Part shown: positions 8,836 to 47,066 of the stretch, one piece after another
Position numbering within the stretch: position 1 is the first letter of the stretch
How the letters are laid out: every line of letters begins with the position of its first letter
DNA from: Klebsiella phage fENko-Kae01
Sequence record: OR228459.1
DNA length: 64,000 nt
Strand: one strand, 5' to 3'
The notes under the pieces: model-generated
Seen by the model: the letters and a program-made list of their open reading frames with translations, nothing else
Databases searched by the model: none
Told to the model about the DNA's origin: nothing
Translations under genes and position numbers: made by a program

Positions 8836-8860
8836 GCCACTCAGTGGCCTTCTTTAAGGA
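8836..8860 (+). terminator. rho-independent terminator
   Basis: AGGCCACTcaGTGGCCT + tcttt. Confidence 0.5.
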
Positions 8861-8870
8861 GTTGATAAAA

Positions 8871-9792: not shown

Positions 9793-10215
9793 ATGTCTTG
9801 GAAACATGTTGACCGTGCTGAACTGAACCAATTTGATATCTTTGCTTTTGTAAATCTCAAACAAAATGTAGTGATGAAAGGTCGTGTTTTCACAGGTTCC
9901 GATTTAGTTACTAAAGTGCTAGTAATGGATAGTGAAGGTGAAATTCAAGGCGTACTCGATCTCCCTGATTGGGCCTATTACAGTACTGAAGATGCCATGC
10001 TTAAAGCATTCTATGAAGAAGTTGGAGCACTTCCTGGGGGTGACTTCAAGAATAAAGTATGGAACATGACGCATAATAATTATCGCATGGAACAACTTTC
10101 GGCAATGATTCAGCGTCTTACTGACATTGCATTTGAAACACCAGAAGCAATCATTTTAAAATACGTTCCCGATTTGACCATTACTGATTCAATGCTTGAG
10201 CAATTCAAGTTCTAA
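9793..10215 (+). CDS. hypothetical protein (140 aa)
   Basis: AAAGAGG RBS. Confidence 0.55.
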   Translation: MSWKHVDRAELNQFDIFAFVNLKQNVVMKGRVFTGSDLVTKVLVMDSEGEIQGVLDLPDWAYYSTEDAMLKAFYEEVGALPGGDFKNKVWNMTHNNYRMEQLSAMIQRLTDIAFETPEAIILKYVPDLTITDSMLEQFKF

Positions 10216-11759: not shown

Positions 11760-12728
11760 GTGAAAAAACTAAATCTAGAATCTATCCACGATGAAGTACT
11801 AGACGAATGTTTCCACAATGAGAACAATACTGTAAAAAGTTTGCTTCAAAGTTCGGCTGATGATATTGATGATGAAAGCACCGCAGTTGTAAGCAGTGAA
11901 GCATACAATACAAAAGAACGTTTGCCAGCAGGTTTGACCAACGAAATTCTTATTGACCGCATTAACAGCGGTATTGATGTGGCTAAAAACATGGACATGC
12001 TAGTACGTTGCAACAGTGGTTTAGTTTATGCAATTGCTCGTAAATGTACTTGTAACATTCAATTCCAAGATAAAGTACAATATGGTTTCGAAGGATTGAT
12101 ACATGCAATCCGCAAATTCGATACTTCTAAAAAAACCAGCTTTAGTACTTATGCTACTACTGCAATCAGGCAGACTATGTATAACTACGGTAACGAAGAG
12201 TCTCGTATGGTAGCACTACCCAAGTATCAATCAGTTAACAACGTAACGATTCAGAACTTCATTGAGCGTTTCATTGCAAACAACGGTCGTAACCCAACGC
12301 ATGAGCAGATTTCAGAAGGTACTGGTATTGACCTAACTTCAGTATCTCGTGTAATGAAATACACAAGCAATGCAATCAGTCTTGATACACCAGTTAATGA
12401 AGATGGGTCTGTAATGCTTCAGGACGTGATTAAAGGTGAAAGCGAAGACTTCCATTTAGATCCGGGTCTAATCACCGATGAGAGCATTATGAACGAACTT
12501 TTGGAAGTAATTTTTCATGACCTATCGCCAGATGATCGTGCATTAGTTGAAGCAGTACACGGCTTGAATCACGAAGATGAAAAATCTTTTTGGACTCTAG
12601 CATCGGAAGGTTTTGTTTACACTGATAGTAAAGGGCGTCAATATTCTTCACGTACCTCTTTACATCGCTGCTACAATGATGTAGTATCACGTATTCGTCG
12701 TCATATGAATGAGCGTGGTATCAAATGA
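11760..12728 (+). CDS. sigma-70 family RNA polymerase sigma factor (322 aa, GTG start)
   Basis: Region 2.2-2.4 signature GLIHAIRKFD....FSTYATTAIRQTMYNY (cf. FSTYATWWIRQ). C-terminal region-4-like HTH. AGGAG RBS 7 nt upstream of the GTG. Confidence 0.7.
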   Translation: MKKLNLESIHDEVLDECFHNENNTVKSLLQSSADDIDDESTAVVSSEAYNTKERLPAGLTNEILIDRINSGIDVAKNMDMLVRCNSGLVYAIARKCTCNIQFQDKVQYGFEGLIHAIRKFDTSKKTSFSTYATTAIRQTMYNYGNEESRMVALPKYQSVNNVTIQNFIERFIANNGRNPTHEQISEGTGIDLTSVSRVMKYTSNAISLDTPVNEDGSVMLQDVIKGESEDFHLDPGLITDESIMNELLEVIFHDLSPDDRALVEAVHGLNHEDEKSFWTLASEGFVYTDSKGRQYSSRTSLHRCYNDVVSRIRRHMNERGIK

Positions 12729-15835: not shown

Positions 15836-16330
15836 ACCGATTACGGGGAGTCCAATGGACTCCCTGATGTTGTTATTCCTGATCCACTTGAAAATGTAAA
15901 GGGCAGATGAGTTGATAATCGCAACGAAGTGCAGATGAAACCCGCTCGGCGGCAATGCGGCACTATAAACGAGAACGTAAGGCACGTAACCTCGCTAGAT
16001 AGACATATGAGAGTACTCACCAGATTGCTAAGGGAGTTTATTAAAGGGTTAGTCACACCCATAATAAACACATTCTATCGTGGACTGTATCGCGTTAGAA
16101 TGAGTGTAGTAGGACTACGACCGTTGCATAGAACAGAGATAGGGAGAAACAGGGCAACTCGCTTCCGTGTCATTGACAATTCTCTATACAGTAAAGCCGA
16201 TGCCACCAGCGTCAAGTTTTAATTCTTCCTCCCCAGCGGGGGGATGAAATTGCCTCTACAAACCTCGTCAATATAAAAGGTTGACATAATCAAATAAATG
16301 AATTACACTGAACGAAGTGAAGAGTAATTC
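15836..16330 (+). ncRNA. candidate structured non-coding RNA (ORF-free, GC-elevated 0.5-kb region)
   Basis: No credible ORF on either strand; the track ORFs here are R/S-rich and non-protein-like. GC is locally elevated. Several perfect hairpins (GGGGAGTCCaatGGACTCCC, CCCCagcGGGG, CGTTGCTATCgaaGATAGTAACG). Promoter-like TTGGGA...TATAAT at 15796-15829. Confidence 0.3.
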
Positions 16331-29710: not shown

Positions 29711-29722
29711 GGGGCTTTTTTA
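29696..29722. terminator. bidirectional rho-independent terminator
   Basis: aaaaaGCCCCgctaaGGGGCtttttt. Separates the convergent plus-strand block and the minus-strand MIPF array. Confidence 0.7.
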
Positions 29723-30367
29723 TTCAAATGGATATGTTGGTGGAGTTATGGATGATTCTGTATACAACGCAGAATTGCTTATTCTGATTTGGTCATAGTA
29801 AGCATTAGCAGAAGTTTCATACCCACCAATTCGTAATGGTGTGTTATAAACACCCCATCGATCACCATTAAGAATCATTTTCAAAGAACCACTGATATAT
29901 AAACGAACATCGGTTCCGCTCTGTACTAATGCTACATGTGTCCATACATTAAGTGGTATATTACTTGAAATTAGGCTAGTACCTTTCGTTCTACCCTGTA
30001 AGTACAAATTACTTGTATAGATTTTTACACCACCAGTAACACCAGTACCATTACTGATATACCAGTTATTGGTATTTCTACCAACAGCATACATGTAAAA
30101 TTCAATAGTATAATCACCTTCTTGTTTAGATACGTTAAGATCTTTCATTTGATCCACAGCTAAACTGATAAAACCAGAAGTGAATCTAAATGATTTCTCT
30201 TGTTCGGGTAATACTATAGTACTGTCTATAGAAGGAGTACTGTTTAATGTAATAACCCTTCCCGGATTCCAAACATCTTTGAATCCATCTTTAGCTCTCA
30301 TGAGCATACCATATTTTTTATCTGGTGCTGTATTAGCATATGTTAATAATCTTGAAAATGGTATCAT
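29720..30367 (-). CDS. MIPF-family paralog 1: ConA/LamG-like lectin-fold protein (215 aa)
   Basis: N-terminus MIPFSRLLTYAN. Jelly-roll-like motifs (NVWTHVALVQSGTDVRLYISG). AAGGAAAA RBS on the minus strand. Confidence 0.6.
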   Translation of the reverse strand: MIPFSRLLTYANTAPDKKYGMLMRAKDGFKDVWNPGRVITLNSTPSIDSTIVLPEQEKSFRFTSGFISLAVDQMKDLNVSKQEGDYTIEFYMYAVGRNTNNWYISNGTGVTGGVKIYTSNLYLQGRTKGTSLISSNIPLNVWTHVALVQSGTDVRLYISGSLKMILNGDRWGVYNTPLRIGGYETSANAYYDQIRISNSALYTESSITPPTYPFE

Positions 30368-30440
30368 TTTATTTTCCTTAATTTTGCAGACATATATTTA
30401 ATTAGAAAAATCCCCTAACTTTGACAGTACATGGATACAT

Positions 30441-31571
30441 TTAAAAAGGTAAATCCGTCTGTTCAGAAATAATATAACTCAATGGTGTTTGGCATATCGA
30501 ATAATTTTTACCAGCCATACTACTAGGTGGATATCCACTCATCCAAATTTTATTACCTGACCAGAAATAATTAATATACGTTCCACCACTATATGACATA
30601 TTCGTATTATAAGAACTGAAATCTACTTCTTTCCATGATTCAAAATATGGTAAATTATTGCTGGACTGACTATTAATAGGACTATACCCTGTACTAACAA
30701 GTTTATTTGTATCAGAATTGTGTAGATATAATCTACTAGGAGATGGAGATATATTGTCATTATAAAATTTACTCATGTCACCTATATTGAATCCAACATT
30801 AATACTTTTTTGACTTAAACCTGAAACCCCTGTATTTGATGTACCGGTAACATGGATAATATTATCAGTACTTATAACAATTATACCATTATTATAATAA
30901 ATGGTATTAGGTGTGAAAGATATATCTTTAAGTACTTCGGTAAACGTAACTTTATCTCCCGGTTGGTCATTTATTTGCAGGGAGTTATTATTTCCAGCAC
31001 CCCAAATAGTATTATCATTTTTTACAATAAAACATGTGTCTCCGCCAGCATCACCAAAAACACTTTTAACATTTTCAGACATTAATACCCAATCACTAAC
31101 AAATGTTTTAGTTCCATTTCCAATAGAACCATTGCGATTATATCCTCTACCATAAAGTTTACCATCATTTAACAAAACAAAGACAGTGTATCCAGCGATA
31201 ATATTTTTAATATTAGATATATCGAAAGCTGAAAAGTACTGACTTACATCTGTAAATCCCTGCTGGATTGTATTCGCATTATGAAAGCAATATAATGATC
31301 CAGTAGCATACATTTTACCATCAGTCTTATGAGCAAAAGTAACATACCCTGTCCAGAAGTTTACAACATCTTGTGCAGACAAGACAATATCTCCTGTTAT
31401 ATTCAAAGCTGTACTTCCACCCCATAGGTAATCATTATCAACACCATGTGCATATAAATCCCCGTTTTCTAAGAGGATCAGACCACGGGTGTTATATGAC
31501 AAAATTTTTTTAATACTTGGTAATCCGGGTGCTATATTAGCATAATTTAATATACGAGTGAATGGTATCAT
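30441..31571 (-). CDS. MIPF-family paralog 2: RCC1-like beta-propeller repeat protein (376 aa)
   Basis: Track ORF 30441..31595 trimmed to the MIPFTRILNYAN start, with an AAGGAG RBS 6 nt upstream. Repeated G.N..G.LG.G-type blades. Confidence 0.65.
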   Translation of the reverse strand: MIPFTRILNYANIAPGLPSIKKILSYNTRGLILLENGDLYAHGVDNDYLWGGSTALNITGDIVLSAQDVVNFWTGYVTFAHKTDGKMYATGSLYCFHNANTIQQGFTDVSQYFSAFDISNIKNIIAGYTVFVLLNDGKLYGRGYNRNGSIGNGTKTFVSDWVLMSENVKSVFGDAGGDTCFIVKNDNTIWGAGNNNSLQINDQPGDKVTFTEVLKDISFTPNTIYYNNGIIVISTDNIIHVTGTSNTGVSGLSQKSINVGFNIGDMSKFYNDNISPSPSRLYLHNSDTNKLVSTGYSPINSQSSNNLPYFESWKEVDFSSYNTNMSYSGGTYINYFWSGNKIWMSGYPPSSMAGKNYSICQTPLSYIISEQTDLPF

Positions 31572-31582
31572 TTTATTTCTCC

Positions 31583-32761
31583 TTACGTGTTCCACGGTAA
31601 TTTTATTGGTGTGAATTTTGGATACAAAATAGTTGCTTCTAAACCGGGTAAGTACTTACCTTGTCCAGCACCATAAACATTCCCATTAACATCACACAGT
31701 ATTGTTGAATAATTTCCACATGCAGTTATTGTTTTTATTTCTGAACCTTTTACTTGTACATCCCCTCCACCAAAAATAGTTGGTAGGTAATTAACAATAG
31801 TTGCCACAGTAGAACCAGTACCAGATGAATACGAACTCGCATTATTATATCCATTAACCATCAATCTATCATAACCATCAACAATATATGTAAGAACATT
31901 AAATGTAGTGAATGATGATTTTGCAGGTAATGACAATGTATTAGTAACTAATGTTGGTTTTTGAACCGGGGCAGGTGAAGCAGTACTTCCCGGTGTTGCA
32001 GTACTATAATAATTTGTACCCCATGAATATACATTACCATCAATTGTGATACATTTATAGGATAATGCATCGCTTGATAACGATTTACACTTTTGATTAT
32101 TTGGTAACACCAATCTTGTAAATGATAAAAGTGTAACCCCGTTATTGGCAATGCCAGAATTATTATCATTTCCACATCGGTATAGTTCTCCGGTTTTAGT
32201 AAGGAGCCATGTTGCAATATTTCCATTAACATCAAGTACTTCCTCTACTGGCCCACCAGTATGCTGTAACATAGTCCATGTTAATGGTGCGGTACTTAAT
32301 CCAAATGATGGATAATTAGTTGGACTAATTACTTTTACAACCCCAGAACTATCAATTTTATATAATCCATGTCTAGTAGTAAATAACTTATGAATATCAT
32401 TGCCATCTGATAGCATTAGATCAGTGAAATCAGTAAATGTATTTGTATTCGATGCATTTGGTATAACAGACGCAATCCAACCCGTATAAAACCATTTTCC
32501 ATCTACTGTTTTGATTATACATCCCGGAGTCATATCTTCTATCCAAAAGTCTTCTACGTCATCGCGAAGAATATGCCATCCATCTAAAAAATTATTAATG
32601 TCTTGACCATTGCCAAATTCACCATTACTACTTTCACCGAATGCATATAATATATTATTATTATCTAACAGATAAAGTGCTTTTTGCCATCCTGCTATTT
32701 TCTTTACAAATTTGTTTTGTACGGTATTTCCATACGTTAATATCCTTGCGAATGGTATCAT
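31583..32761 (-). CDS. MIPF-family paralog 3: RCC1-like repeat protein (392 aa)
   Basis: N-terminus MIPFARILTYGN. GESSNGEFGNGQ-type repeats. Confidence 0.65.
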   Translation of the reverse strand: MIPFARILTYGNTVQNKFVKKIAGWQKALYLLDNNNILYAFGESSNGEFGNGQDINNFLDGWHILRDDVEDFWIEDMTPGCIIKTVDGKWFYTGWIASVIPNASNTNTFTDFTDLMLSDGNDIHKLFTTRHGLYKIDSSGVVKVISPTNYPSFGLSTAPLTWTMLQHTGGPVEEVLDVNGNIATWLLTKTGELYRCGNDNNSGIANNGVTLLSFTRLVLPNNQKCKSLSSDALSYKCITIDGNVYSWGTNYYSTATPGSTASPAPVQKPTLVTNTLSLPAKSSFTTFNVLTYIVDGYDRLMVNGYNNASSYSSGTGSTVATIVNYLPTIFGGGDVQVKGSEIKTITACGNYSTILCDVNGNVYGAGQGKYLPGLEATILYPKFTPIKLPWNT

Positions 32762-33954
32762 TTTATATCTCCTTGATTTACATTCAATCCATGTTTCATT
32801 GATTCTTTCGTTAAATCTTTTGGGAATTTACCAAATTTGTCTGATATATTAGTATAAGTATCATATGTAATTATTTCTGTTTTAGTATTAAATCTACCAC
32901 ACATATATATTGAACCATCTTTCAAGTATACATAAGTTGCTGAGTTACCTAAATCAAGATACACAATATCATTAGTATTAAATGGAACTTGAACTTTTAC
33001 TGGAGATACTCTAACGGTTCCATCATTTAATCCTCTAAATGAAGTATTTCCGGTAACATACATACCTTCATTTGTGTAATACATAGTTGTATTACAGTTT
33101 GAAAATGAATTATCAGCAAGACCTATAATACTGGTTCTCATAGGCCATGAATTACTTATTATAGTGGTTGACGTTAGATTATTAGTAGAACCATTACCAA
33201 ATACACCATTAAAACCAAATCCTCTTCCATACCACGTTTTATCAACATAAGAAGGAAAAATTATTGCATATTGATGATCCTGTAGTGATTTACCATATAT
33301 CTCATCAGTACTAGCATTTCCAATTAATACTGGATATGAATAAAAAGTACTTTCAGGGGCTGATGAAAATATACTAGCTATATTTTGACCACCACCATGT
33401 ACTTGACCCGATGTATTAATTGTCCACCAGTTTGTACCACTATTACCTATAGCTATAATATTTGTACTTACTAAATTCCAATTTGTATATGGCACTGTAC
33501 TAGAGTTTAAACCCCTTTGTGAACCAATCACTCTGAAAAAATTATTATTATCTATGAAACCAATACTAGGGGAACCTGTATTAAATGAAACTGTATCAAT
33601 AATAATAGAGCCTGAAGAAAAGAAAATATCTTCTTTGAAAGTTGTTTCCATTGTATTGTCATTACTAGTACGATAAACTCTAGAACCCGTATAATAGACT
33701 TTATTATTAGTTTCTTGAAGCATCAAAGAGTTCCCAAATTGATCCATCCAGAAATTTTTTACGTTATTTCTTATAAGTGTCCAATCTTCATGCCATACTT
33801 TTGCTTGACCATCACCAAAAGCACCATTGCCTCTACCATGCAATTCCCCATTACTTAATAAAATCATCCAAGATGCTGTACTGAATTGTATTTTAACAAT
33901 CTTAGAATCTTCCGCTATATTGCCATAATTTAACATTCTTGTGAACGGTATCAT
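32758..33954 (-). CDS. MIPF-family paralog 4: RCC1-like repeat protein (398 aa)
   Basis: N-terminus MIPFTRMLNYGN. ATGA overlap with paralog 3. Confidence 0.65.
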   Translation of the reverse strand: MIPFTRMLNYGNIAEDSKIVKIQFSTASWMILLSNGELHGRGNGAFGDGQAKVWHEDWTLIRNNVKNFWMDQFGNSLMLQETNNKVYYTGSRVYRTSNDNTMETTFKEDIFFSSGSIIIDTVSFNTGSPSIGFIDNNNFFRVIGSQRGLNSSTVPYTNWNLVSTNIIAIGNSGTNWWTINTSGQVHGGGQNIASIFSSAPESTFYSYPVLIGNASTDEIYGKSLQDHQYAIIFPSYVDKTWYGRGFGFNGVFGNGSTNNLTSTTIISNSWPMRTSIIGLADNSFSNCNTTMYYTNEGMYVTGNTSFRGLNDGTVRVSPVKVQVPFNTNDIVYLDLGNSATYVYLKDGSIYMCGRFNTKTEIITYDTYTNISDKFGKFPKDLTKESMKHGLNVNQGDIK

Positions 33955-33964
33955 CCCCTTCTCC

Positions 33965-35131
33965 TTATATTATTCTTGGTTGCATTGGAACTTTATTCCA
34001 TTTGGTAAAATCTTCAGTTGACCCCGGTATCCATCTTGAATTACCCACTGCATATACCGTATTTTCATGCCAATAATACACGTAATAACCACCTTGAACA
34101 ACATGTGTTGGATCGAAGATAATATCTTGAAGAAAACCATTTTGCACTAAGGTTGAATATATTATTGTTGATGTATTACCTATTCCAAATCTACCATAGT
34201 AATCAGAACCAGAACTATATATAGATTCTGAAGTACAAAGATAAATTGCTCCTTCACTGCAAAAACTATTTGTGTACTGAACAAATTTACTGGCTAATTC
34301 AGAATCAATTAATGTATTTTTTGTTAGTGTCGTGTAATAAGAAGATGCAGTAGTCCCATCAGCACATAAACCATTACCACGAAACCCGCTCATATATACA
34401 TCATTGCTTTCTGTAATAATCAAGACATTATTAGCACTTAAAATAATGGTTTTTATTGGCAATGTAAACGGTACTTTATAGAATATAGGTTGCTCACTTG
34501 AAAATCCTAGACCTAAAGTTCCATATAAATTTCTTCCAGTACCGAAAAGTTCACCTGATGTACTAATATAAAATGAGGCATCACTTGATGAACTTAATGA
34601 ACTATAAATTTCTTTCACTCCACTAGCTACACGTTTAAATGATGCTGAAGGTGTAGTACCTAAACCAATATTACCGTACTGATTATTTGATGCATATGTT
34701 CCTTGACCAATAGCATAAAGCTGTTCATCTTGTAATAAAAATAATCCTCTACTTCCAAACATTAATTTGGCTTTGTTTAAATCAAAGTTATTGAAAGTTG
34801 ATGTTATTTCAGTAAATGTATTTAAATATCCAGATGATGCTCCCAATGATGCTCGATAACCAGTAAAAAACACTTTATTATTTTCAGTAATAATTAAAGT
34901 ACAGTCAACACCAACATATATATCTTTTATATTTTCGATTGGACATTTTACCCATGTATTTTTGTTTACTAATGTTCCATCACCTAATTGACCACTTGTA
35001 TTATCACCAGTACCAAATGCTTGACCATCATCAAATAGTACAAAAATAAATCCATAATACGAAACAACTTTTTTAATTTTAGTTTTTGGTAAAATATTAC
35101 CATATGATATAATTCTTGCAAATGGAATCAT
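33965..35131 (-). CDS. MIPF-family paralog 5: RCC1-like repeat protein (388 aa)
   Basis: N-terminus MIPFARIISYGN. GDNTSGQLGDGT, a classic RCC1 blade motif. Confidence 0.65.
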   Translation of the reverse strand: MIPFARIISYGNILPKTKIKKVVSYYGFIFVLFDDGQAFGTGDNTSGQLGDGTLVNKNTWVKCPIENIKDIYVGVDCTLIITENNKVFFTGYRASLGASSGYLNTFTEITSTFNNFDLNKAKLMFGSRGLFLLQDEQLYAIGQGTYASNNQYGNIGLGTTPSASFKRVASGVKEIYSSLSSSSDASFYISTSGELFGTGRNLYGTLGLGFSSEQPIFYKVPFTLPIKTIILSANNVLIITESNDVYMSGFRGNGLCADGTTASSYYTTLTKNTLIDSELASKFVQYTNSFCSEGAIYLCTSESIYSSGSDYYGRFGIGNTSTIIYSTLVQNGFLQDIIFDPTHVVQGGYYVYYWHENTVYAVGNSRWIPGSTEDFTKWNKVPMQPRII

Positions 35132-35170
35132 AATCCCCTCATAATTCTTGTAATTATATTATATTTAATT

Positions 35171-35208
35171 AAAAAAGGTCAGTACTGGTATTGTACTGAC
35201 CTTTTTAT
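35171..35208 (-). terminator. intra-array terminator hairpin (bidirectional) followed by conserved leader
   Basis: aaaaaaGGTCAGTACtggtattGTACTGACCttttt. On the minus strand it is followed by a conserved ~35-nt leader (aattaaatataatataattacaagaattatgagggg) ahead of paralog 5. Confidence 0.55.
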
Positions 35209-36329
35209 TATTTCCAAGGCATTTTTTCATCGGCAAGTCGAGTAAGCCTATTAAAAAATGAAATTCCATTTATTGGTGTATTACCACATACAAACATATC
35301 ATCGTTATTATCAATAACCATTGAAAATAAATTATCACCACCAAATGAAACAATATTAGATACTGTACCGAATATCATTGGTGTTAGTGTAGCTTGTGCT
35401 GATGAAGATGCACCATTACCACATTGTCCATAGCTATTAAATCCACAACGCCATATTTGATTGTTAATCCATATCATCGGTGACATACCCAAACTGTTTG
35501 TTAAAGAACCAATTACTCTTAATGGTACAGAAGGATCAAATTGAGTACTGATCTGTACTGAATTAAGTACTGGATTTGTATTACCAACCGAACCTTGACC
35601 TTGTGTGTTAATTGATGCAGTTCGTATAGAACCATCTTTCATAAAATAATATGTTGTATAAAACGTATTAGCAGTGTACAATACATCATCCAATGTTTTC
35701 GTAAATGTAGGTACTGAGGTTGGTGTAGTACCAGATAACATCATCATTCCTGCATAATAACAACTTCCATCACTTAATATTAAACAGGTTGTATTGAATG
35801 AACAGGACATGTACTGAACGTTTTCGATTGAACTATATGTGAATTTAGTAACACTAGCAGAACTACCAGTACCGAAACACCCAGCACTATTGCTTCCATA
35901 AAAGAACCATTTTCCATTATTCAATAATACTCTAATACCTTCAGCAATGTAAACACTTTTTATATCATCTGGCGATACCCCAAAATCTGAAAAGTACTTC
36001 GTTACATTAACAAAGGATCTTGTATTTTGTGCTATTGGCATACCATATGTACTTCCAGTGTACCACATTATATTATCTTCATCTATAGCCAGTGTTCCAT
36101 GTACACCACCGAAATATCTTTTCACTCTGGTTAATACCTTAGTCCACGATGATAGGTTCGTTGTATCACCAGTTCCTAATTGACCCAAGTTATTCTGTCC
36201 AATTGCATATAGATCACCATTACGGTGTAAATACCATGCTGCACTGTAATTTACCTGAACTCGTTCACCCAATATAGTCGGTGCTTTAACTTCATTGCCA
36301 TAACTTAATATTCTTGTAAATGGTATCAT
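35208..36329 (-). CDS. MIPF-family paralog 6: RCC1-like repeat protein (373 aa)
   Basis: N-terminus MIPFTRILSYGN. GQNNLGQLGTGD. Confidence 0.65.
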   Translation of the reverse strand: MIPFTRILSYGNEVKAPTILGERVQVNYSAAWYLHRNGDLYAIGQNNLGQLGTGDTTNLSSWTKVLTRVKRYFGGVHGTLAIDEDNIMWYTGSTYGMPIAQNTRSFVNVTKYFSDFGVSPDDIKSVYIAEGIRVLLNNGKWFFYGSNSAGCFGTGSSASVTKFTYSSIENVQYMSCSFNTTCLILSDGSCYYAGMMMLSGTTPTSVPTFTKTLDDVLYTANTFYTTYYFMKDGSIRTASINTQGQGSVGNTNPVLNSVQISTQFDPSVPLRVIGSLTNSLGMSPMIWINNQIWRCGFNSYGQCGNGASSSAQATLTPMIFGTVSNIVSFGGDNLFSMVIDNNDDMFVCGNTPINGISFFNRLTRLADEKMPWK

Positions 36330-36351
36330 TATTATTCCTCGATTATTTTAA

Positions 36352-37521
36352 TTACATTGGCAATACCAACGGAAGTACTGAACCAATACCATATGTTGGA
36401 ACATTACTTTGTATTGTTGGTGCTGTATTTTTTGGTGAAGATGTGGCTATATTAGGAAAAGATGAAGATGGATTAAACAATACTATATTACCAGAACCAC
36501 TCATAAGCATCAACCCATCGTATTTCTCATTTTGTGCACATTTCTCGAATGTTCCAATGTCAACTGTAGAATTCACATAGTTTTTACTTCTATGTCCACA
36601 ACCATATATTTCATTATCAACTGTCATGTAATATGATACGCTTCCTGAACTCGTATTAATAAATTTAAAATAGCTACGGAAATTAGCTGGTAGAATTGGT
36701 AATGTTCCTGATACGAATCCATAAAACCCACTATTAGTATTACCATTACCCAACGAACCATATGATCCCCATCCAGTTCCGTAATATGTCCCATCAGATA
36801 AAAAAATTATACAATTGTTATTGCACATTTTAATTTGATTGATTTTTTGAACATCCACACCCGGAAATGATTCAGTAAATGTTAATACATTAGAAACACT
36901 ACTTGCATTACATTGGTTTTGTGTATTACGTCCAGATGATAGTACTGTGCCATCTTCTAAGATAATTCTTGCTGCTCCAGTACCAGACATACATGCTACC
37001 GCATTTGATGAATTAAACAATTTCTTTAACGAAAAAAAACCAACATTGGCTTTCCCTTGACCTGACCAACCTTCTGTATCAGTACCAATACCCCACACCG
37101 AACCATCATTATGAATAAGCATAAGACCATTTCTATCAATATTAATGTATTTTATCTCATTAATATCTATTCCGACAAAACTAGATGTAACGTCAATCCA
37201 TGTATTCGAAACTGTTACAGAACTTTTCAATACGTTGTGACCCGTTAACATAACTTTACCAGTACTTGTAATATATATTGTTTGTGAAAAACCAGTACTA
37301 CATAACCTAACTTCATCAACTTCGGGAACCATAATCCACTCATTAAATGAATTTGTGTTATTTCCAGTACCCAATTGACCATTGGCATTACTACCAGACA
37401 AATATAACTTTTCATTGTAAATCAATGAATACGTTTCACTATATTCTGAAGTACTCAATAAAATTGATTTTGGTATTGGTGGTGTATTTCCATATAACAT
37501 GATTCTAGCAAATGGTATCAT
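36352..37521 (-). CDS. MIPF-family paralog 7: RCC1-like repeat protein (389 aa)
   Basis: Track ORF 36352..37536 trimmed to the MIPFARIMLYGN start, which follows a GGGAGG RBS. GSNANGQLGTGN. Confidence 0.65.
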   Translation of the reverse strand: MIPFARIMLYGNTPPIPKSILLSTSEYSETYSLIYNEKLYLSGSNANGQLGTGNNTNSFNEWIMVPEVDEVRLCSTGFSQTIYITSTGKVMLTGHNVLKSSVTVSNTWIDVTSSFVGIDINEIKYINIDRNGLMLIHNDGSVWGIGTDTEGWSGQGKANVGFFSLKKLFNSSNAVACMSGTGAARIILEDGTVLSSGRNTQNQCNASSVSNVLTFTESFPGVDVQKINQIKMCNNNCIIFLSDGTYYGTGWGSYGSLGNGNTNSGFYGFVSGTLPILPANFRSYFKFINTSSGSVSYYMTVDNEIYGCGHRSKNYVNSTVDIGTFEKCAQNEKYDGLMLMSGSGNIVLFNPSSSFPNIATSSPKNTAPTIQSNVPTYGIGSVLPLVLPM

Positions 37522-38220
37522 ATTTGAACCTCCCACATCTTAACATATTGTATCCTACCTTTGAATAAAACTGGATTAGCATTATTATCTCCAGCAACAT
37601 ATGAGCCAAATAAACTAAAATACTGATTATCTGGTGATAATATTTGATACCAAGGAAATGTTTGTGTTTCATTAAAAAGTTCAGAATGTACAGTAACAGA
37701 AATACCTTTTCTAAACTCCATTTTTATAGTATCCCATGCATTGGGGTTAGACCATGTTGGAAGTATTCGGGCAAAATTATTTCCCCAATCTATGAATACT
37801 TGATTATATGTAGCACTATATTGGTTGAATGCATTAACAAATCCCGATATTCTTCTGCTATTATAATTACCAGTTTCAAATAACGTTTGCCCCCCCAAGT
37901 GGTGAACATTTCATTCTATATTCTATGGCAAATGCATTATACAGACTGAAGTCTAATTTGATTCCTTTTACTGGATTTATAGTTCTAAAATAAACACTAC
38001 TATTTGTACAATCCAATACATTAGACCCTATTTCATCATCATATACCACAGTTCCGGCGATGGGATTAGTTATACCTATTTGTGAACGTTGTAAAAATGC
38101 ATTACCTGCTCTATCAGGAATACCAGTACTACCAATTTTTTGAGTACTGTAATCTACATCAAGTATCATTTTTTCGGGTGCAATATTCCCGTATTTTAAT
38201 ATCATTGAAAATGGTATCAT
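37518..38220 (-). pseudogene. MIPF-family paralog 8: ConA/LamG-like lectin-fold gene split by a frameshift at a G7 (coding-strand) run
   Basis: Two adjacent ORFs in different frames (37876..38220, which begins MIPFSMILKYGN, and 37518..37898). They fuse into one ~238-aa protein if the C7/G7 run at 37890-37896 loses one base. The fused size and fold resemble paralog 1. Confidence 0.55.
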
Positions 38221-38307
38221 AATCCCCTCATAATTCTTGTAATTATATTATATTTAACCAAAAAAAGCCAGTACACCATTTTTAGTACTACACGAAATTT
38301 AAGTTTA

Positions 38308-39492
38308 CTATAATTTCCACGGTAATTGCATTAGAGATTGAAAATATCCATTGAAAATATCATTTGTTAAACAAGTTGGGTTCGTGTTTTTCCCGCAGCC
38401 CAAAATAATATTTTCATCCCTGCATATATATCCATTATAATAATTACATATAATAATATCATGTTCTTTGCAAATTATATCAGGAACTATAGTATATGTA
38501 CCTATATATTGGGGTGATGTTCCTAAACCCAACGCATAATTATAATTATTTCCAGTACTATATAATCTATTATTAATATCAACATACATGGAAACGCCAC
38601 TATGCATTGTATATACTTTACCAAAATAATTATAATCATTACATGAATTCGGTAATTCCACGGTGATCATATTACCTGATGTATTTTGATTCGTATTCGT
38701 TGTATTTCCATCACCGAATGCCCCGGCTGAATTCGTACCAATACAATATGCTGTTGACTTAGTATACGCAATCGTATTGTTAGTAGACATCCTAACCTGA
38801 AGTATAGGTTCACTTACAGTACTAAACATTCGATGAAAACGAACAATATTCTCATTATTAATGCCACCCTCAGTACTGGTTTTTATACAATATGATGCAT
38901 TCCTACCAGCACCCCACACTGTCCCGTCTTTTTTAATATATACACTATTTTGTGAAGTAATAGAACAATCTTCAACATCAGTATCTATCAATGTCAATGG
39001 GAAATATCCAGTACTACCAACACCTAATTCACCATAACGATTAAGTCCAATACCATAAAGTTCACCATTGTTTAATAATACAAATGTATTATTCTCAGGA
39101 ACTATTTTTTTAATATCTGATATATTAATAGAACTAAACAAGTTAGAGATATCAGTAAATGTCGTATACCCTGATGCTGTACCACTGTTATTCTGAATTG
39201 CTCGATCGCCTGATAAAAATATTTTATCATCATGCGAAATATATATAGTACTTCCAATCCCATTAGTACATAACTTAATATCCGATTCTGGTATTTTAAA
39301 TAAAGATCTAGGTCTATCTGATTTATGACCCAACCCCAATTGACCATATGCGTTATACCCACCAACATAGGCATCGCCGGTGCTTAATAAAATACTATAA
39401 GAAACATTAGAACTAAAACTTAAATTCATTTGTTTGATATATGGTATTTCTCTTATATTACCGTATGTCAATATCCTAGCAAATGGTATCAT
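38308..39492 (-). CDS. MIPF-family paralog 9: RCC1-like repeat protein (394 aa)
   Basis: N-terminus MIPFARILTYGN. GYNAYGQLGLGH. Preceded on the minus strand by the conserved leader. Confidence 0.65.
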   Translation of the reverse strand: MIPFARILTYGNIREIPYIKQMNLSFSSNVSYSILLSTGDAYVGGYNAYGQLGLGHKSDRPRSLFKIPESDIKLCTNGIGSTIYISHDDKIFLSGDRAIQNNSGTASGYTTFTDISNLFSSINISDIKKIVPENNTFVLLNNGELYGIGLNRYGELGVGSTGYFPLTLIDTDVEDCSITSQNSVYIKKDGTVWGAGRNASYCIKTSTEGGINNENIVRFHRMFSTVSEPILQVRMSTNNTIAYTKSTAYCIGTNSAGAFGDGNTTNTNQNTSGNMITVELPNSCNDYNYFGKVYTMHSGVSMYVDINNRLYSTGNNYNYALGLGTSPQYIGTYTIVPDIICKEHDIIICNYYNGYICRDENIILGCGKNTNPTCLTNDIFNGYFQSLMQLPWKL

Positions 39493-39529
39493 ACATTCTC
39501 CTTATTTGTACAATTATATTATATTTAAT

Positions 39530-39566
39530 TAAAAATGACAGTACTTATGTAGTACTGTCATTTTTC
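39530..39566 (-). terminator. intra-array terminator hairpin
   Basis: aaaaaTGACAGTACTtatgtAGTACTGTCAttttt. Perfect 10-bp stem with T-tracts on both strands. Confidence 0.6.
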
Positions 39567-39569
39567 TTA

Positions 39570-40373
39570 TTATGTAGTTGGGCCTACATTACTTGTGGGA
39601 AATCTACGACCACCTCCCCAAATAATACGCACACCACCCAATCCTTCATCAGTACTTGTATTACCAGCACCACGATATATGGTTGTACCCGGAACCGCAC
39701 TACCTGAACTACCACGATAATGTGCAGCAGAACCACTTCCAGATTCACCCATACCAAATAAACCAACTGCACCACCTGAAGCAGCTATACCGCCCCCTCC
39801 GCCAGCACCACCAGCACCAGAACTGCCAGATGAACTACTTGCACCATTACCACCATTACCTTCATAGCCACCAGCACCACCTGAGCCGCCTCTTTCATAT
39901 CGATAAGTACCAGAAGTCGGCCCACTACCACCTCTACCACCATCGCCGCCGCCATCGTTTATTTGACTGGCATTCTTTCCACCAACACCTCCTGACCCTC
40001 CGGCACCACTAGACATTGTAGTACCATAACTGCCCATTTTTCCACCACCAGCAATGCAAGCATTTGAGTTATTTTGTAATACATAAGAATTTCCACCATC
40101 AGAATTGGCTGTATAACCATTTACACCAACTGTAACTGATAGTACTTCACCGGGAGTTACCACTACATCATTCCTATAACTTAAACCACCGCCACCGCCA
40201 CCACCACCAGTACTTCCAGTGCCAACCCTACCACCACCGCCAACACATAATATACATATAGATTCAACATCATCTGGTACTATAAACTCAAATGTTCCAG
40301 ATTGAACCCAGACCATTTCCCCTTTTGGTGGTAATTTATTTCCGTATGTTAGCATTTTTGTAAATGGTATCAC
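39570..40373 (-). CDS. MIPF-family paralog 10: glycine-rich protein (267 aa, GTG start)
   Basis: N-terminus (V/M)IPFTKMLTYGN followed by long GGxGG/GSG tracts. The opposite-strand ORFs 39584..39775 and 39656..40012 (His/Gln-rich) are mirror artefacts. Confidence 0.55.
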   Translation of the reverse strand: MIPFTKMLTYGNKLPPKGEMVWVQSGTFEFIVPDDVESICILCVGGGGRVGTGSTGGGGGGGGLSYRNDVVVTPGEVLSVTVGVNGYTANSDGGNSYVLQNNSNACIAGGGKMGSYGTTMSSGAGGSGGVGGKNASQINDGGGDGGRGGSGPTSGTYRYERGGSGGAGGYEGNGGNGASSSSGSSGAGGAGGGGGIAASGGAVGLFGMGESGSGSAAHYRGSSGSAVPGTTIYRGAGNTSTDEGLGGVRIIWGGGRRFPTSNVGPTT

Positions 40374-40383
40374 GATTGTCTCC

Positions 40384-41517
40384 TTAATTAATTCTTATTT
40401 TAGTAAAAATATTATTTTCTGAACCATCAGATTTTTTTCCCGGTAAAACACTAATACTTCCAACTCCCCAAATATCATTTCCATCAAATATTAAAGAATA
40501 AAAAGTTCCACCCAAAATCTGTACTTTTTTGTTATCTTGTACTGTTGTAAATTTAGGAATTTCTTTAAAAATAGAGGATGCCTGTGGTAAGCCACTATAT
40601 TCAACTAGACCCGTTGCATAAAATGTACCGTTAGTACCTAAAAATATATTTCTGTTTGGTGTACCCTTTAACTTTCCTCCAATAACCATTTGGGATGGCA
40701 TGTTTATTTTGGTTGACCAAGATTTAAGCTGAGTATTTGAATTTACACCGTCACCTAATATCCCATTAATTTGCCAACCAGAACCTGCTATTGTCGTTGG
40801 TGTCCAATATGATAATGTACTAGCACGTGTTGCCATAAAGGATGATGTGCCACCATTAAGTATTATCCCCCACGTATACTTATTTTCTGAATTACCAGAA
40901 CCAAATTGACCATAAGGCTGTTGTCCCGCTCCATACAAATATACGGAAGTGGGTGAAATTCCACGAGCTATCATAGAATAGTCTCCAACATATAATTCTT
41001 GATGGTAAGTAGTACCAACTCGCGTAAATGAACTTATCCGATTTGTAGATCCTAGACCACACGCCCCATTACTATTCCAACCTCTTGAATATAATTGATT
41101 GTCGATATCAATATATCCCATAGTGTATAAACCAATATCTAATTCTTTCACCGAATCATAAGATGGCATAGTATTAGTTATATCATCACCTTCTATTGGA
41201 GATAATCCACCAGTAGTATTCTTGGTTCCTAATACATCATAGTTTCCATTAAAAATCCATTTTCCATCCTTAGTATATATTAATGTACTCTTAGAACCAC
41301 ACCAAACATCTTCTGCATTTCTATCCAGTACTACAAACTCGTAGTACTGATATGTTGCTGTGCAATCCTTTAACTGATTAGAATTGTTATAACCAATACC
41401 ATATAGTAATCCACTTTCCATTAATACCACATAATGTGTATCACCACATGATATTTTCTTTATATTACTTGGTACAACTACATTACCATATCCCAATATC
41501 CTCGCAAATGGTATCAT
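40384..41517 (-). CDS. MIPF-family paralog 11: RCC1-like repeat protein (377 aa)
   Basis: Track ORF 40384..41535 trimmed to the MIPFARILGYGN start. Confidence 0.65.
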   Translation of the reverse strand: MIPFARILGYGNVVVPSNIKKISCGDTHYVVLMESGLLYGIGYNNSNQLKDCTATYQYYEFVVLDRNAEDVWCGSKSTLIYTKDGKWIFNGNYDVLGTKNTTGGLSPIEGDDITNTMPSYDSVKELDIGLYTMGYIDIDNQLYSRGWNSNGACGLGSTNRISSFTRVGTTYHQELYVGDYSMIARGISPTSVYLYGAGQQPYGQFGSGNSENKYTWGIILNGGTSSFMATRASTLSYWTPTTIAGSGWQINGILGDGVNSNTQLKSWSTKINMPSQMVIGGKLKGTPNRNIFLGTNGTFYATGLVEYSGLPQASSIFKEIPKFTTVQDNKKVQILGGTFYSLIFDGNDIWGVGSISVLPGKKSDGSENNIFTKIRIN

Positions 41518-41559
41518 ATATCCCCCATAATTCATGTAATTATACTATATTTAATTAAA

Positions 41560-41590
41560 AAAGGCTAGTACGCACTTGTACTAGCCATCT
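41560..41590 (-). terminator. intra-array terminator hairpin (minus-strand T-tract)
   Basis: GGCTAGTACgcactTGTACTAGCC followed on the minus strand by TTTTTTAATTAA, then the conserved leader. Confidence 0.5.
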
Positions 41591-41591
41591 C

Positions 41592-42737
41592 TCAATTAAT
41601 AGATTTAATATCAACTTCTGCACCCAATGACAATTTAGTAAAGGTAGTTGTATCTTGACTTAAGGAAGGAAAAGAAGAACCACTATACCAAATTGTATTT
41701 CTAGTTATTATCATAGTATTAGTTGAATTAGCACATATTCCAATTATATCATTAAGTACTAACTCATCTGGCAAATTAATAATTGTCTTATTTTGGGGCG
41801 TAACCTTATTACCTAAACCCAATTGTCCACTTGTATTATTTCCAGTACAATATAAATCATTATTCACACTAAAAAATGTACCATAACGTGTTAATATAGA
41901 ATATGGATGATTGAAAAACTTATTAGCACCAACCATACTATACAAACCCGTAATACCAATTTGGGCTGTACTTCCATTACCCATACAATAATAAGTACCT
42001 AATCCCGCTCCATATATCCAACTTTGATTAATAGACATAACCGCCGATGGCATTAAACTCCATGAAATGTTAGAAGTTCTAGGAGCAGAAGCAACTTGTA
42101 CTTCATTCGGCGTAGGTGATGTTCCAAGCATCGATGGTGCATTACCAAAACCACAGATAACATCATATGCACTGAACCATTTTCGATAAGCCGTTATGCC
42201 ATTATAAAGCTGTACATCTTTAACCCTAGAAACCATTAAAGTAGGTACTGATAACATTCCATTTAAGGCAACCTTATTACTTAAACTATAAGTACTATTC
42301 CTACCAACCATATATAAATCACCATATGTGCGATCAGTCGAATTCGGTATTAAATAAGCCATGTTGTTTAAAGTAGCTGTAATGTTATAAGCATCACTAG
42401 GAATAGTAAAGGGAAGTTTGGTAAAACTATATACATTACTATTAAGCCCTAAACATGTGCGGTTGCCAGATATATAGTACTGACCATCATTTCCTTGAAT
42501 GATCACACTCATATCAGTAGCACATACCACTTTTTTAATATTACCTGCAATCAATCTCCATTCAGATAATGGTGCAGAATCACCAGTACCCAATTGACCC
42601 TGACTATTATCCCCTAATGCAAATAAATTACCAATAGAATCTATATATAATGCAAAATAATTCAATCCACAGAATTGAACTATTTTTGCATCCGGTAATG
42701 TGTTCCCATAATCCAATATCCTAGCAAACGGTATCAT
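41592..42737 (-). CDS. MIPF-family paralog 12: RCC1-like repeat protein (381 aa)
   Basis: N-terminus MIPFARILDYGN. GDNSQGQLGTGD. Confidence 0.65.
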   Translation of the reverse strand: MIPFARILDYGNTLPDAKIVQFCGLNYFALYIDSIGNLFALGDNSQGQLGTGDSAPLSEWRLIAGNIKKVVCATDMSVIIQGNDGQYYISGNRTCLGLNSNVYSFTKLPFTIPSDAYNITATLNNMAYLIPNSTDRTYGDLYMVGRNSTYSLSNKVALNGMLSVPTLMVSRVKDVQLYNGITAYRKWFSAYDVICGFGNAPSMLGTSPTPNEVQVASAPRTSNISWSLMPSAVMSINQSWIYGAGLGTYYCMGNGSTAQIGITGLYSMVGANKFFNHPYSILTRYGTFFSVNNDLYCTGNNTSGQLGLGNKVTPQNKTIINLPDELVLNDIIGICANSTNTMIITRNTIWYSGSSFPSLSQDTTTFTKLSLGAEVDIKSIN

Positions 42738-43933
42738 ATATTATCCTCTCTTAAATTAAAATCTGTTATTAATGTAAAATTCTCAGATAATGGTGTACTT
42801 AATGGCGTAAATCCAACACCAGCACTTGTTGTTAACCCCGAACCCTTTGCATATAGTAACGGGGCCATATTCAATGCACAAAGAGCAAACATCCTCGTAT
42901 TTGTATAAGCCCTATATGTGTTCCCATTGCCCTGTACTGTATATCTTGGCGTGAATGTGAGAAGACGATCTCCACCACCTCCATCCATATAACCCGCAAA
43001 ATATAGTACACCATTAGTATCAGATAGGATATTCGTCCAATACGTCTGGATGGATGTCCCAAATAGTGATAATAAATTACCCGGCTTAAATGCTAATTGT
43101 GCAGTATATAACCGAACATTCGCATCTACACTAATATTACCTATCCCCCACGCACCAGCATAATTTCTTCCTGAACAATAATATTTTCCGTCCGTCCTAA
43201 AAAGCATAAAATGTGTTTGACTTATACGAAATGCATTATATTCATAATCTACCTCAGATGTAGCCTCAGAAAATAATTGTGTCCATGTAGTATATACAGT
43301 ACTTTGAGATGTAGTCTGCATCTGTTGATAAGTGTTATCTCCAGTACCCCAAAATGTTCCATCCAAATCCTGATATACTCCATTAATATTCGTTATCCAA
43401 CAATCCTGTACTGACGATTTTAATAGTACTGGCGTGAAACTAGGAGTTTTATTAGCACTACCAAAGTAACCATAATCGTTTTTTCCATGTGCATATAATG
43501 AACCATCATTCAACAAAATATAAACTGTGTTGTAATTCATTGTTATTTTCTTAATCTTTAATATATCAAAATACGTAGAATAAAATGAAGTCTTATCAAC
43601 CCATGTGGCTGTATTACTAGTACCATCATATATCGTCTGACGACCTGTATAAAATAATTTATCATCATTCGATAATACAAACGTTCCATATGTACTACCC
43701 CATGCAGTCTTTACATCCCTCTTAACTAAATGCATCTCACCATAGTAATTTACACCAACTGGAAAACCCAAAACATATCCATAATTCTTATCACAGGTTC
43801 CCCATAACTCTCCATTATTCAAATGCATCCACATCGTCGCGGCGGTATTATCCGAATCCAAAAAGAAGTCAATCACTTTTGCGGGTGCTGCTACCTTATT
43901 CCCATACTCTAATATCCTAGTAAATGGTATCAT
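42734..43933 (-). CDS. MIPF-family paralog 13: beta-propeller-like protein (399 aa)
   Basis: N-terminus MIPFTRILEYGN. ATGA overlap with paralog 12. First gene of the array, reading from the 43.9-45.6 kb control region. Confidence 0.6.
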   Translation of the reverse strand: MIPFTRILEYGNKVAAPAKVIDFFLDSDNTAATMWMHLNNGELWGTCDKNYGYVLGFPVGVNYYGEMHLVKRDVKTAWGSTYGTFVLSNDDKLFYTGRQTIYDGTSNTATWVDKTSFYSTYFDILKIKKITMNYNTVYILLNDGSLYAHGKNDYGYFGSANKTPSFTPVLLKSSVQDCWITNINGVYQDLDGTFWGTGDNTYQQMQTTSQSTVYTTWTQLFSEATSEVDYEYNAFRISQTHFMLFRTDGKYYCSGRNYAGAWGIGNISVDANVRLYTAQLAFKPGNLLSLFGTSIQTYWTNILSDTNGVLYFAGYMDGGGGDRLLTFTPRYTVQGNGNTYRAYTNTRMFALCALNMAPLLYAKGSGLTTSAGVGFTPLSTPLSENFTLITDFNLREDNI

Positions 43934-47008: not shown

Positions 47009-47066
47009 AAATCTAAAAGCGTATAATGATTTGCATAGGGGGAAACATCTTCCCCCCACTATTAAG
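47009..47066 (+). promoter_or_regulatory. promoter (TTGCAA-16-TATAAT) + conserved 5'-leader hairpin type A (GGGGGAAacatcTTCCCCC)
   Basis: Member of a 10-copy leader family. Confidence 0.6.

Follow-up and report, generated by a model that had tools for sequence, protein, structure and literature searches.

A 64,000-nucleotide stretch of the genome of Klebsiella phage fENko-Kae01 (GenBank OR228459.1; hereafter the window) contains two overlapping open reading frames (ORFs) that are the halves of a single gene coding for a predicted lectin-like virion protein, interrupted by a homopolymeric tract of seven guanines (G7). The split locus carries the GenBank CDSs ENKO_523c and ENKO_522c. We regard it as probably an accessory virion-protein gene in a genuine, heritably frameshifted form, which in effect makes it a recent pseudogene of the fENko-Kae01 lineage. 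Since the break is genuine but confined to this lineage, an ordinary inactivation, reversible in principle, is the most likely explanation rather than an evolved switch; interpretations of the tract as a switch or as a site of programmed frameshifting are unsupported.

The whole disrupted gene is a 703-nt cassette at positions 37518..38220 of the minus strand. Its 5' part, ORF A (ENKO_523c; 37876..38220, minus strand), begins with an ATG preceded by a Shine-Dalgarno (SD) sequence (GAGGGG) behind a promoter-like repeat unit, and codes for 114 residues, comprising 108 genuine codons and six out-of-frame codons followed by TGA. The 3' part, ORF B (37518..37898, minus strand), extends for 126 residues from a TTG and represents the last 125 codons of the ancestral gene; GenBank annotates just its last 67 residues, as ENKO_522c. 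There is no SD ahead of this TTG (upstream sequence AAATGTTCACCAC) and ORF B has no plausible start of its own. The frame of ORF B is +1 relative to that of ORF A, and the two overlap across the G7 tract at 37890..37896 (minus strand; C7 on the plus strand; tract-spanning window sequence TTCACCACTTGGGGGGGCAAACGTT), confirming the arrangement reported in a preliminary description of this DNA. The coding strand at the split reads TCA CCA CTT GGG GGG G CA AAC GTT ATT TGA, so that the out-of-frame tail of ORF A has ANVI after the Gly-Gly pair and meets the TGA about 5-6 codons past the tract. Deletion of one G gives the in-frame state, G6 (GGG GGG, Gly-Gly), and a continuous 702-nt ORF with the predicted junction peptide CSPLGGQTLFETGNYNSR; the earlier surmise that six guanines would fuse the halves thus holds, for a product of 233 rather than about 238 residues.

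Within the 64 kb the tract is the only G/C run of at least 7 nt (only three G/C runs reach 6 nt; runs of six are present at 47052..47057, C6, and 16238..16243, G6), and it is the sole mid-domain gene interruption among the 107 homopolymers of at least 6 nt. As a rough estimate, about 0.5 G/C runs of at least 7 nt would be expected by chance at 35% GC, so that a G7 run is not by itself improbable. No enrichment of G tracts was seen in the surrounding gene array or in the window. GGGGGG is used in none of the 55 Gly-Gly dicodons of the other array genes, and GGG is the second-rarest glycine codon of the array (8.8%, just above GGC at 6.9%).

This array comprises 14 kb of genes for binding-domain proteins, namely RCC1-like propellers, LamG proteins and one with a Gly-rich domain. 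Codons 1-12 of the split gene (38185..38220, minus strand; MIPFSMILKYGN) code for an N-terminal module that is common to all 13 array genes, with the consensus MIPFxRxLxYGN, and is disordered in the AF2 model (pLDDT 41). The promoter-like/SD repeat unit immediately upstream (38221..38257, minus strand; TTAAATATAATATAATTACAAGAATTATGAGGGGATT) recurs as an identical copy ahead of the gene starting at 35131, and a terminator and RBS are annotated at the homologous position in the record of the Salmonella phage Munch. At the other end, the ORF B frame and the next gene share an ATGA in which stop and start codon overlap (37518..37521, minus strand); this neighbor codes for a 389-residue RCC1-like protein (37521..36352, minus strand) and is preceded by an SD of its own (GGGAGG). 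Neither Rfam families nor tRNAs were found in the window. The literature retrieved on RCC1 arrays in jumbo phages was mostly eukaryotic, and the paper on phAPEC6 offers a speculation about DNA condensation.

Several lines of evidence indicate that ORFs A and B derive from one gene. The fused product matches the profile of PHROG 6011, a family of virion structural proteins, over its full length (E=1.7e-33; residues 1-230 on profile positions 1-219 of 221), and the alignment with homologs runs on without a break beyond the tract and through the block of highest conservation, QTLFETGNYNSRR. The fused protein is confidently modeled by AF2 (pLDDT 86.5, pTM 0.85) as an all-beta protein of 15 strands, which form a single jelly-roll domain with strands drawn from both halves: ORF A would supply the N-terminal module together with strands 1 to about 6 of the fifteen, and the G7 site would fall in a surface loop, where homologs vary. 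Foldseek searches with this model recovered the N-subdomain of BoNT Hc, domain 4 of AbnA, agrin LamG and viral ConA-like proteins, with probability 1.00 and TM-scores of about 0.55-0.75; matches in BFVD were to structural proteins of phages CBB and GAP32 and to ConA-like proteins. We accordingly predict that the fused product adopts a ConA-like/LamG jelly-roll fold. One homolog, CBB_549, was found in CBB virions by mass spectrometry (6 peptides, 50.7% coverage; PMC5259590). Proteins of the PHROG 6011/CBB_549 type in Rak2-like jumbo phages share with the fENko-Kae01 gene its full-length homology, size and N-terminal module, and their loci have the same neighborhood, an array of propeller and LamG proteins beside the terminal repeat; all other members are intact and the fENko-Kae01 copy is the only interrupted one that we found.

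The split gene had also been described as a paralog of the gene at 29720..30367, which is only partly right. The two share a fold class, but paralogy at the domain level is not supported, with BLASTP and hhalign detecting similarity only in the N-terminal 17-44 residues, that is, in the N-terminal module. The gene at 29720..30367 matches the Pfam family Laminin_G_3 (PF13385; 36.8 bits against a cut-off of 27.6), whereas the fused protein recovers no Pfam family at E<=1, Laminin_G_3 included. Laminin_G_3/ConA-like genes (29720..30367, CBB_548 and CBB_551) would thus have the predicted jelly-roll class, the N-terminal module and the array context in common with the fused protein, and lie adjacent to genes of the PHROG 6011 type in CBB and in one metagenome contig; profile similarity to the fused protein is confined to the first ~44 residues, and sugar binding by the latter is putative.

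We then considered the tract in relatives. In the Salmonella phages 7t3, SE_PL and Munch the ortholog is one 702-nt CDS with GGAGGA, one base fewer than G7, at the equivalent position. The sequence AATCGGAGGA is present in 7t3, Munch and three more Salmonella-derived contigs, where the window has ACTTGGGGGGG. Thus the tract itself is not kept: GGAGGA is read in frame in five orthologous sequences, and in more distant homologs the site is occupied by residues other than Gly. All six homolog clusters (226-233 residues) consist of single ORFs aligning through the tract, and most of 23 phage records match as one uninterrupted, near-full-length piece, 19 of the 23 over at least 80% of the query. 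A degenerate tract-spanning pattern gave zero hits in IMG/VR, the GTDB representative genomes and the JGI metagenomes, so that no other tract allele was recovered there, and no fused protein of the fENko type was found among protein clusters. The G7 tract itself recurs, in the Logan contig ERR2184199_134 from a metagenome of the Eliava PYO cocktail, which is 100% identical to the window over 3,107 bp. These comparisons point to a tract specific to the fENko-Kae01 lineage, and both available assemblies (the GenBank isolate and the PYO-cocktail metagenome) are in the G7, or OFF, state. The contig index held no exact match to ORF A, because ORF A runs to the contig end in the Logan contig, which ends on both sides at a repeat of the type seen at 38221..38257.

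The cassette as a whole is variably distributed. Phage PHA46 is collinear with the window and near-identical to it, yet is without exactly the segment 38208..37523; in 7t3 the cassette sits in a different slot, beside a gene for a 385-residue protein that is missing from fENko-Kae01, and is 91.8% identical to that of the window, while the backbone is 98-99% identical. These differences suggest that the gene is dispensable and the array plastic. In sibling genomes other array genes are broken by two slippage frameshifts from (AT)3 to (AT)4 and by one substitution.

Based on these observations, we propose that two synonymous A-to-G changes converted GGA GGA to GGG GGG, creating a G6 in a genome where such runs are otherwise avoided, whereupon replication slippage would have added one more G. 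As the frame is shifted by the extra G, ribosomes that begin at the normal start stop soon after the tract, and the product would be a 114-residue fragment, presumably non-functional, with under half of the jelly roll; the 3' half, whose own start signals are missing, is presumably untranslated. The loss is probably tolerated because the array cassettes appear to be individually dispensable and swapped by recombination at their conserved 5' codons. Slip-back from G7 to G6 is expected at the rate generic to short repeats, and rare ON revertants must therefore exist in large populations.

The ORF B half shows dN/dS of 0.16 relative to the 7t3 allele, with no further stops or indels; this undecayed state fits a recent frameshift, and would equally fit a product made via frameshifting or by ON revertants. 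From the 158 proteins that LC-MS/MS detected in the published fENko-Kae01 proteome (Table S3), CDS_522 and CDS_523 are both missing, as expected if the gene is broken, and the array members 517, 518, 525 and 526 are present; this negative result is a weak one, given that sensitivity was low, that the sample was only ultrafiltered and that the fused sequence was absent from the search database, and most RCC1-like array members were likewise undetected.

An alternative put forward in the preliminary description is that the G tract is a phase-variation switch, that is, a selected and reversible ON/OFF contingency locus for a virion lectin-like protein. In the form considered in this analysis, the OFF state would be favored on production hosts, and mixed populations would serve as bet-hedging for host range or evasion. 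Certain features are compatible with it: the tract is a mononucleotide run within a coding region, at a position predicted to lie in a variable surface loop; G6 restores the 233-residue frame, so that a change of one unit in either direction would alter expression; the 3' half is intact; and (AT)n slippage toggles other array genes in sibling genomes. Moreover, runs of at least 6 nt in T-even phages show an indel frequency of ~3e-4, and one such run switches T2 agt (PMC12633550). To fENko-Kae01, as a flagellotropic phage of narrow host range (PMC11218385), accessory binders could matter. Nevertheless, we consider such a switch unlikely, given that the tract is missing from all orthologs and homologs, that a single length state was seen in two independent data sets, that the ON allele (and likewise G8) was not found in the protein collection or scanned DNA collections, and that a near-identical phage, PHA46, is without the gene altogether. 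Furthermore, 7 nt is at the lower edge of hypermutability, and our comparison suggests that the tract would be slippage-prone only generically, like any phage-genome repeat of at least 6 nt (PMC12633550).

Comparison with known systems points in the same direction. Short homopolymers of lytic coliphages have been termed 'putative contingency loci' and are reported across all functional classes of genes (Gomez, Barrick & Waters 2025 preprint, PMC12633550); in the A9 run of T2 agt both states were seen, with measured switching and a demonstrated selective trade-off, and T4 rIIA is also cited there. The fENko-Kae01 locus resembles these in having an in-gene mononucleotide run at which slippage by one unit toggles the frame, reversibly in principle, but it differs from the A9 of T2 agt with its two states in being a G7 found in the OFF state alone and in one lineage. 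A second parallel is offered by the Campylobacter phages, in which the receptor-binding protein genes of Fletchervirus reportedly undergo polyG phase variation; their tracts are reported to be ~9-13 G long, to occur in several genes per genome, to be conserved in related phages and to be heterogeneous in reads. In both cases a virion binding protein (a putative one in fENko-Kae01) has a G homopolymer in its gene, and a frameshift truncates it, but the Campylobacter tracts are reportedly longer, multiple and conserved, whereas that of fENko-Kae01 is single, 7 nt long and lineage-specific, in an array and window without G-tract enrichment.

It is a little less probable again that the locus works as an ON/OFF switch in which most virions are without the lectin-like protein and ~1e-4 to 1e-3 are G6 revertants displaying it. 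Were a switch to exist, the population would always contain a minority whose adsorption or host range is altered, and, together with the (AT)n frameshifts of sibling genomes, the whole N-terminally tagged array might be a slippage-toggled repertoire of accessory binders; it would provide a jumbo-phage example of the newly proposed phage contingency loci, tied to an accessory binding-protein array. The evidence does not favor this.

Another proposal, a genuine requirement for a +1 frameshift, supposes that the gene is functional and that the G7 allele yields the 233-residue protein through +1 ribosomal frameshifting, or else through transcriptional slippage with loss of one G. The sequence GGG GGG G would allow perfect +1 re-pairing of tRNA-Gly(CCC) on GGG-G, and tRNA-Leu on CUU-G could re-pair partially in +1; CUU-G resembles the Ty1 CUU-AGG-C and prfB CUU-UGA contexts. 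The infrequency of GGG among the glycine codons of the array, the purifying selection on the 3' half relative to the 7t3 allele and the persistence of the allele in two cocktails may also be counted in its favor. Against this, the site shares with the prfB and Ty1 sites only the required +1 shift and a P-site codon able to re-pair. Neither a stop nor a hungry codon occupies the A site (the 0 frame continues with GGG, GCA and AAC, and its TGA lies five codons downstream), an upstream SD-like stimulator is lacking (there is no SD-like motif in AGAATGAAATGTTCACCA), and the need to frameshift is not conserved, orthologs being in frame and having no slippery site. For the 126 nt downstream, folding does not exceed that of shuffled sequences (z=0.04), with no Rfam match, and no product was detected by LC-MS/MS. 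Known sites of RNA-polymerase slippage are A/T runs of 8-9 nt or more, and G7 is both too short and of the wrong base type. We therefore hold recoding to be quite improbable.

That the true tract is G6 and the gene intact, the extra base being a sequencing or assembly artefact, is very unlikely, because an independent read set has the identical G7. [quoted passage not shown] The ERR2184199 data, in which G7 recurs, are Illumina reads produced in another laboratory from a different Eliava cocktail than the source of fENko-Kae01. Illumina sequencing comfortably resolves a run of 7.

Least probable of all is that the halves are separate, independently expressed small proteins: although GenBank lists two CDSs, the homolog alignment and the one-domain structural model rule this out, since every homolog is one ORF coding for one compact jelly-roll domain built from both halves, ORF B has neither an SD nor a credible start, and neither product was detected by LC-MS/MS.

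On the preferred reading, that of a recent inactivation, the annotation of ENKO_523c and ENKO_522c should be corrected from two hypothetical proteins to the halves of one frameshifted virion-protein gene. The lesion is a real one carried in independently sequenced Eliava cocktail stocks, which is useful for the engineering and quality control of a therapeutic jumbo phage. The OFF allele is common to two cocktail products of one institute, dated by list order to ~1997 and 2016, and has therefore persisted; a purely deleterious lesion might have reverted.

Examination of the minus strand at the split (...AGA ATG AAA TGT TCA CCA CTT GGG GGG G CA AAC GTT ATT TGA...) revealed two ORFs in adjacent frames whose overlap spans a run of seven Gs (37896..37890, minus strand). 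ORF A (38220..37876, minus strand; ENKO_523c) encodes 114 residues beginning MIPFSMILKYGN..., and ORF B (37898..37518, minus strand) encodes 126 residues from a TTG inside the overlap; ENKO_522c is a 67-residue, ATG-started piece of ORF B, and both annotated products are termed 'hypothetical protein'. Deletion of one G results in an unbroken 702-nt ORF. The sequence bears out the coordinates and geometry of the preliminary description, and the fused product, put there at about 238 residues, has 233. The tract is the only G or C run of at least 7 nt in the 64-kb window and, alone among 107 homopolymers of at least 6 nt, breaks a gene in mid-domain. Indels could merge ORFs at two other runs, both A6 (8815..8820 and 9715..9720, plus strand), which lie at the extreme ends of small neighboring genes, just before the stops in a tandem set (8344..8826, 8844..9314, 9311..9724 and 9793..10215); a +1 insertion in either would yield joined ORFs of 312-337 codons, but this adjacency is probably coincidental.

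Over its full length the fused translation fits PHROG 6011 ('virion structural protein'; E=1.7e-33, with residues 1-230 aligned to positions 1-219 of 221), and its six homolog clusters in a collection of 5.8 billion protein clusters are all single proteins of 226-233 residues. A tblastn search of 50,697 phage records recovered the family in 23, mostly Rak2-like jumbo phages (CBB, BF, GAP32, pEa_SNUABM); the matches listed are each one unbroken piece, with at least 80% query coverage in 19. The homolog of the Pectobacterium phage CBB, CBB_549, was seen in purified virions by ESI-MS/MS (6 peptides, 50.7% coverage; PMC5259590). Aligning the homologs puts the tract in a loop that varies among them (PLGG, PIGG, PSGI, STGI and others), directly ahead of the family's best-conserved block, QTxFETGNYNSRR. 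AlphaFold2 models the fused protein as a single 15-strand beta sandwich with strands from both halves (pLDDT 86.5, pTM 0.85), disorder being limited to residues 1-14. No Pfam family matches the protein; however, the 'lectin fold' label given to it earlier is supported at the fold level, because Foldseek places the model among ConA-like/LamG jelly-rolls, with PDB matches including the botulinum-toxin Hc N-subdomain, AbnA domain 4 and agrin LamG, and BFVD matches including CBB and GAP32 structural proteins and many 'ConA-like lectin' phage proteins. The sequence similarity behind the proposed paralogy with 29720..30367, which Pfam identifies as a true Laminin_G_3 protein, is confined to a shared N-terminal module.

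Across most of the window, identity to the Salmonella phages 7t3, SE_PL, Munch and PHA46 is about 98-99%. The ortholog in 7t3 (7t3_0126, 'structural protein') and Munch (CPT_Munch_540) is one 702-nt CDS, which reads CCA ATC GGA GGA CAA at the site where the window has CCA CTT GGG GGG G CAA; the former is also found in three phage-type contigs from Salmonella samples (two of about 350 kb from NCBI Salmonella assemblies and one of 21.7 kb from Logan). Given GGA GGA in the orthologs, the run arose within the window allele by two synonymous GGA-to-GGG changes and then, presumably, insertion of one G. Elsewhere in the array, GGG makes up only 8.8% of the Gly codons of the 12 remaining genes and GGGGGG none of their 55 Gly-Gly dicodons, the Gly-rich gene included; such runs are normally avoided. 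This Gly-rich gene (39570..40373, minus strand; 267 residues, GTG start, Pfam Gly_rich_2, PHROG 4474) encodes up to eight consecutive glycines, yet its G runs all stay below 6, which again suggests avoidance of slippery tracts. The fENko-Kae01 paper suggested a new genus and put the intergenomic similarity to every known phage below 31%, against the 98-99% seen here for the 64-kb window; either the related genomes were missed there or the similarity is restricted to parts of the genome.

The split gene forms a mobile cassette that the phage can evidently do without. PHA46 is collinear with the window minus exactly 38208..37523 (686 bp), with the junction lying within the ATGATACCATTT 5' codons common to successive genes, and 7t3-type genomes carry the cassette in another slot, between a 373-residue gene and a 385-residue gene lacking a window ortholog. 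The cassette shares only 91.8% identity with the 7t3 allele, against 98-99% for the backbone (dS 0.23; dN/dS 0.24 in the 5' half and 0.16 in the 3' half); it is therefore an imported allele under purifying selection, whose 3' half is undecayed. This fits a recent frameshift, yet is also compatible with ongoing expression. Other array genes are broken in sibling genomes: a 389-residue gene by an AT-dinucleotide insertion (ATATAT to ATATATAT) in the Salmonella-associated contig GCA_019551135.1, a 394-residue gene by an AT-dinucleotide difference in 7t3, SE_PL and PHA46, and the 373-residue gene by one substitution in 7t3. These genes are orthologs of window 38308..39492, 36352..37521 (the 389-residue gene) and 35208..36329, and over 6.8 kb 7t3 and Munch show five differences, two of them disruptive. 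Such breakage is recurrent, and single array members are evidently lost without death of the phage. The reading we favor, and consider probable, is that a lineage-specific slippage frameshift has knocked out an accessory virion-protein cassette that the phage can spare, with reversal expected only at the generic rate. Such an event is of an ordinary kind, and its main value lies in correcting the annotation.

A selected ON/OFF switch, in which the run would alternate between G6 and G7, had been proposed earlier and is unlikely. In T-even phages any SSR of at least 6 nt has been termed a 'putative contingency locus', with a mean indel frequency of about 3e-4 per tract (PMC12633550). The G7 run belongs to this broad category, as do about 106 other runs in the window. 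Stricter criteria for phase variation demand length polymorphism, tract conservation and multiple tracts per genome, the last as reported for the polyG Campylobacter phages, and the locus falls short on all three. No G6 or G8 allele or fused fENko-type protein was found in any collection searched, and the relatives, rather than keeping the tract as a device, are in frame without it.

Decoding of the G7 allele into full-length product would need a +1 shift, which we regard as quite improbable. GGG-G permits perfect re-pairing of tRNA-Gly, and CUU-G recalls the prfB and Ty1 sites. However, the defining features of those programmed sites are absent: no stop or hungry codon adjoins the shift site (GGG, GCA and AAC come next, and TGA lies five codons away), the tract has neither an SD-like element before it nor RNA structure after it (MFE z=0.04), and the orthologs do not conserve the frameshift requirement. 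The window has no Rfam elements or tRNAs, and none of the eight reported phage tRNAs is a tRNA-Gly. RNA-polymerase slippage is known from A/T runs of 8-9 or more, and G7 is not of that kind. In the published LC-MS/MS data CDS_522 and CDS_523 are not among the 158 proteins and CDS_517, 518, 525 and 526 of the array are (CDS_525, the Gly-rich protein, being the best detected array member with 17 spectra); this counts weakly, as most array members also went undetected and the fused sequence was absent from the database.

That the extra G is a sequencing or assembly artefact is highly improbable. The genome (360,105 bp), from a phage of the Eliava ENKO cocktail made 03/2016, was sequenced at Eurofins GATC and assembled from a 100,000-read subset, with all 20.9 M reads mapped as a check (PMC11218385). 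The exact 126-residue ORF B recurs on Logan contig ERR2184199_134, which is 100% identical to window 35139..38245 across 3,107 bp and has the same G7. ERR2184199 is an Eliava PYO-cocktail metagenome (runs listed as PYO97, PYO2000 and PYO2014, by which order it would be PYO97; bioRxiv 10.1101/2024.09.12.612727), and hence another product, laboratory and read set than the 2016 ENKO isolate. Uniform G6, the assembly-error outcome envisaged in the preliminary description, is not what these data show. As far as assemblies can tell, the lesion is genuine, and the observation was correct. Two separate genes are the least credible alternative, contradicted by the single-ORF homologs, in which the halves are never independent, by the one-domain model and by ORF B having no SD or credible start codon.

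The surrounding array is of more interest than the tract. All 13 of its genes (29720..43933, minus strand) begin with a module of about 12 residues, M-I-P-F-[ATS]-[RKM]-[ILM]-[ILM]-x-Y-[GA]-N, followed by unrelated domains: RCC1-like propellers, LamG, the PHROG 6011 jelly roll or a Gly-rich domain. Outside the window (loci L009, 2067..7335 and 11842..12489, and L004, 10001..11358), the module, as MLPFxRxxxYGN, also opens CBB 'structural proteins' of the Kelch-propeller and LamG types, as well as two neighboring genes in a metagenome contig. The module, for which we found no description in the literature searched, is disordered in the AlphaFold2 model, and has the look of a shared docking or targeting peptide that serves a varied set of binding domains. 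An intergenic repeat unit (38221..38257 and 35132..35168, with similar units upstream of 41517 and 39492), comprising a hairpin and T-run, then TTAAATATAATATAATTACAAGAATTATGAGGGGATT, then ATG, apparently splits the array into operons. Together with the conserved 5' codons, these units appear to be recombination sites for cassette shuffling; those preceding 38220 and 35131 match perfectly for about 45 nt, and both ends of the Logan contig coincide with the repeat.
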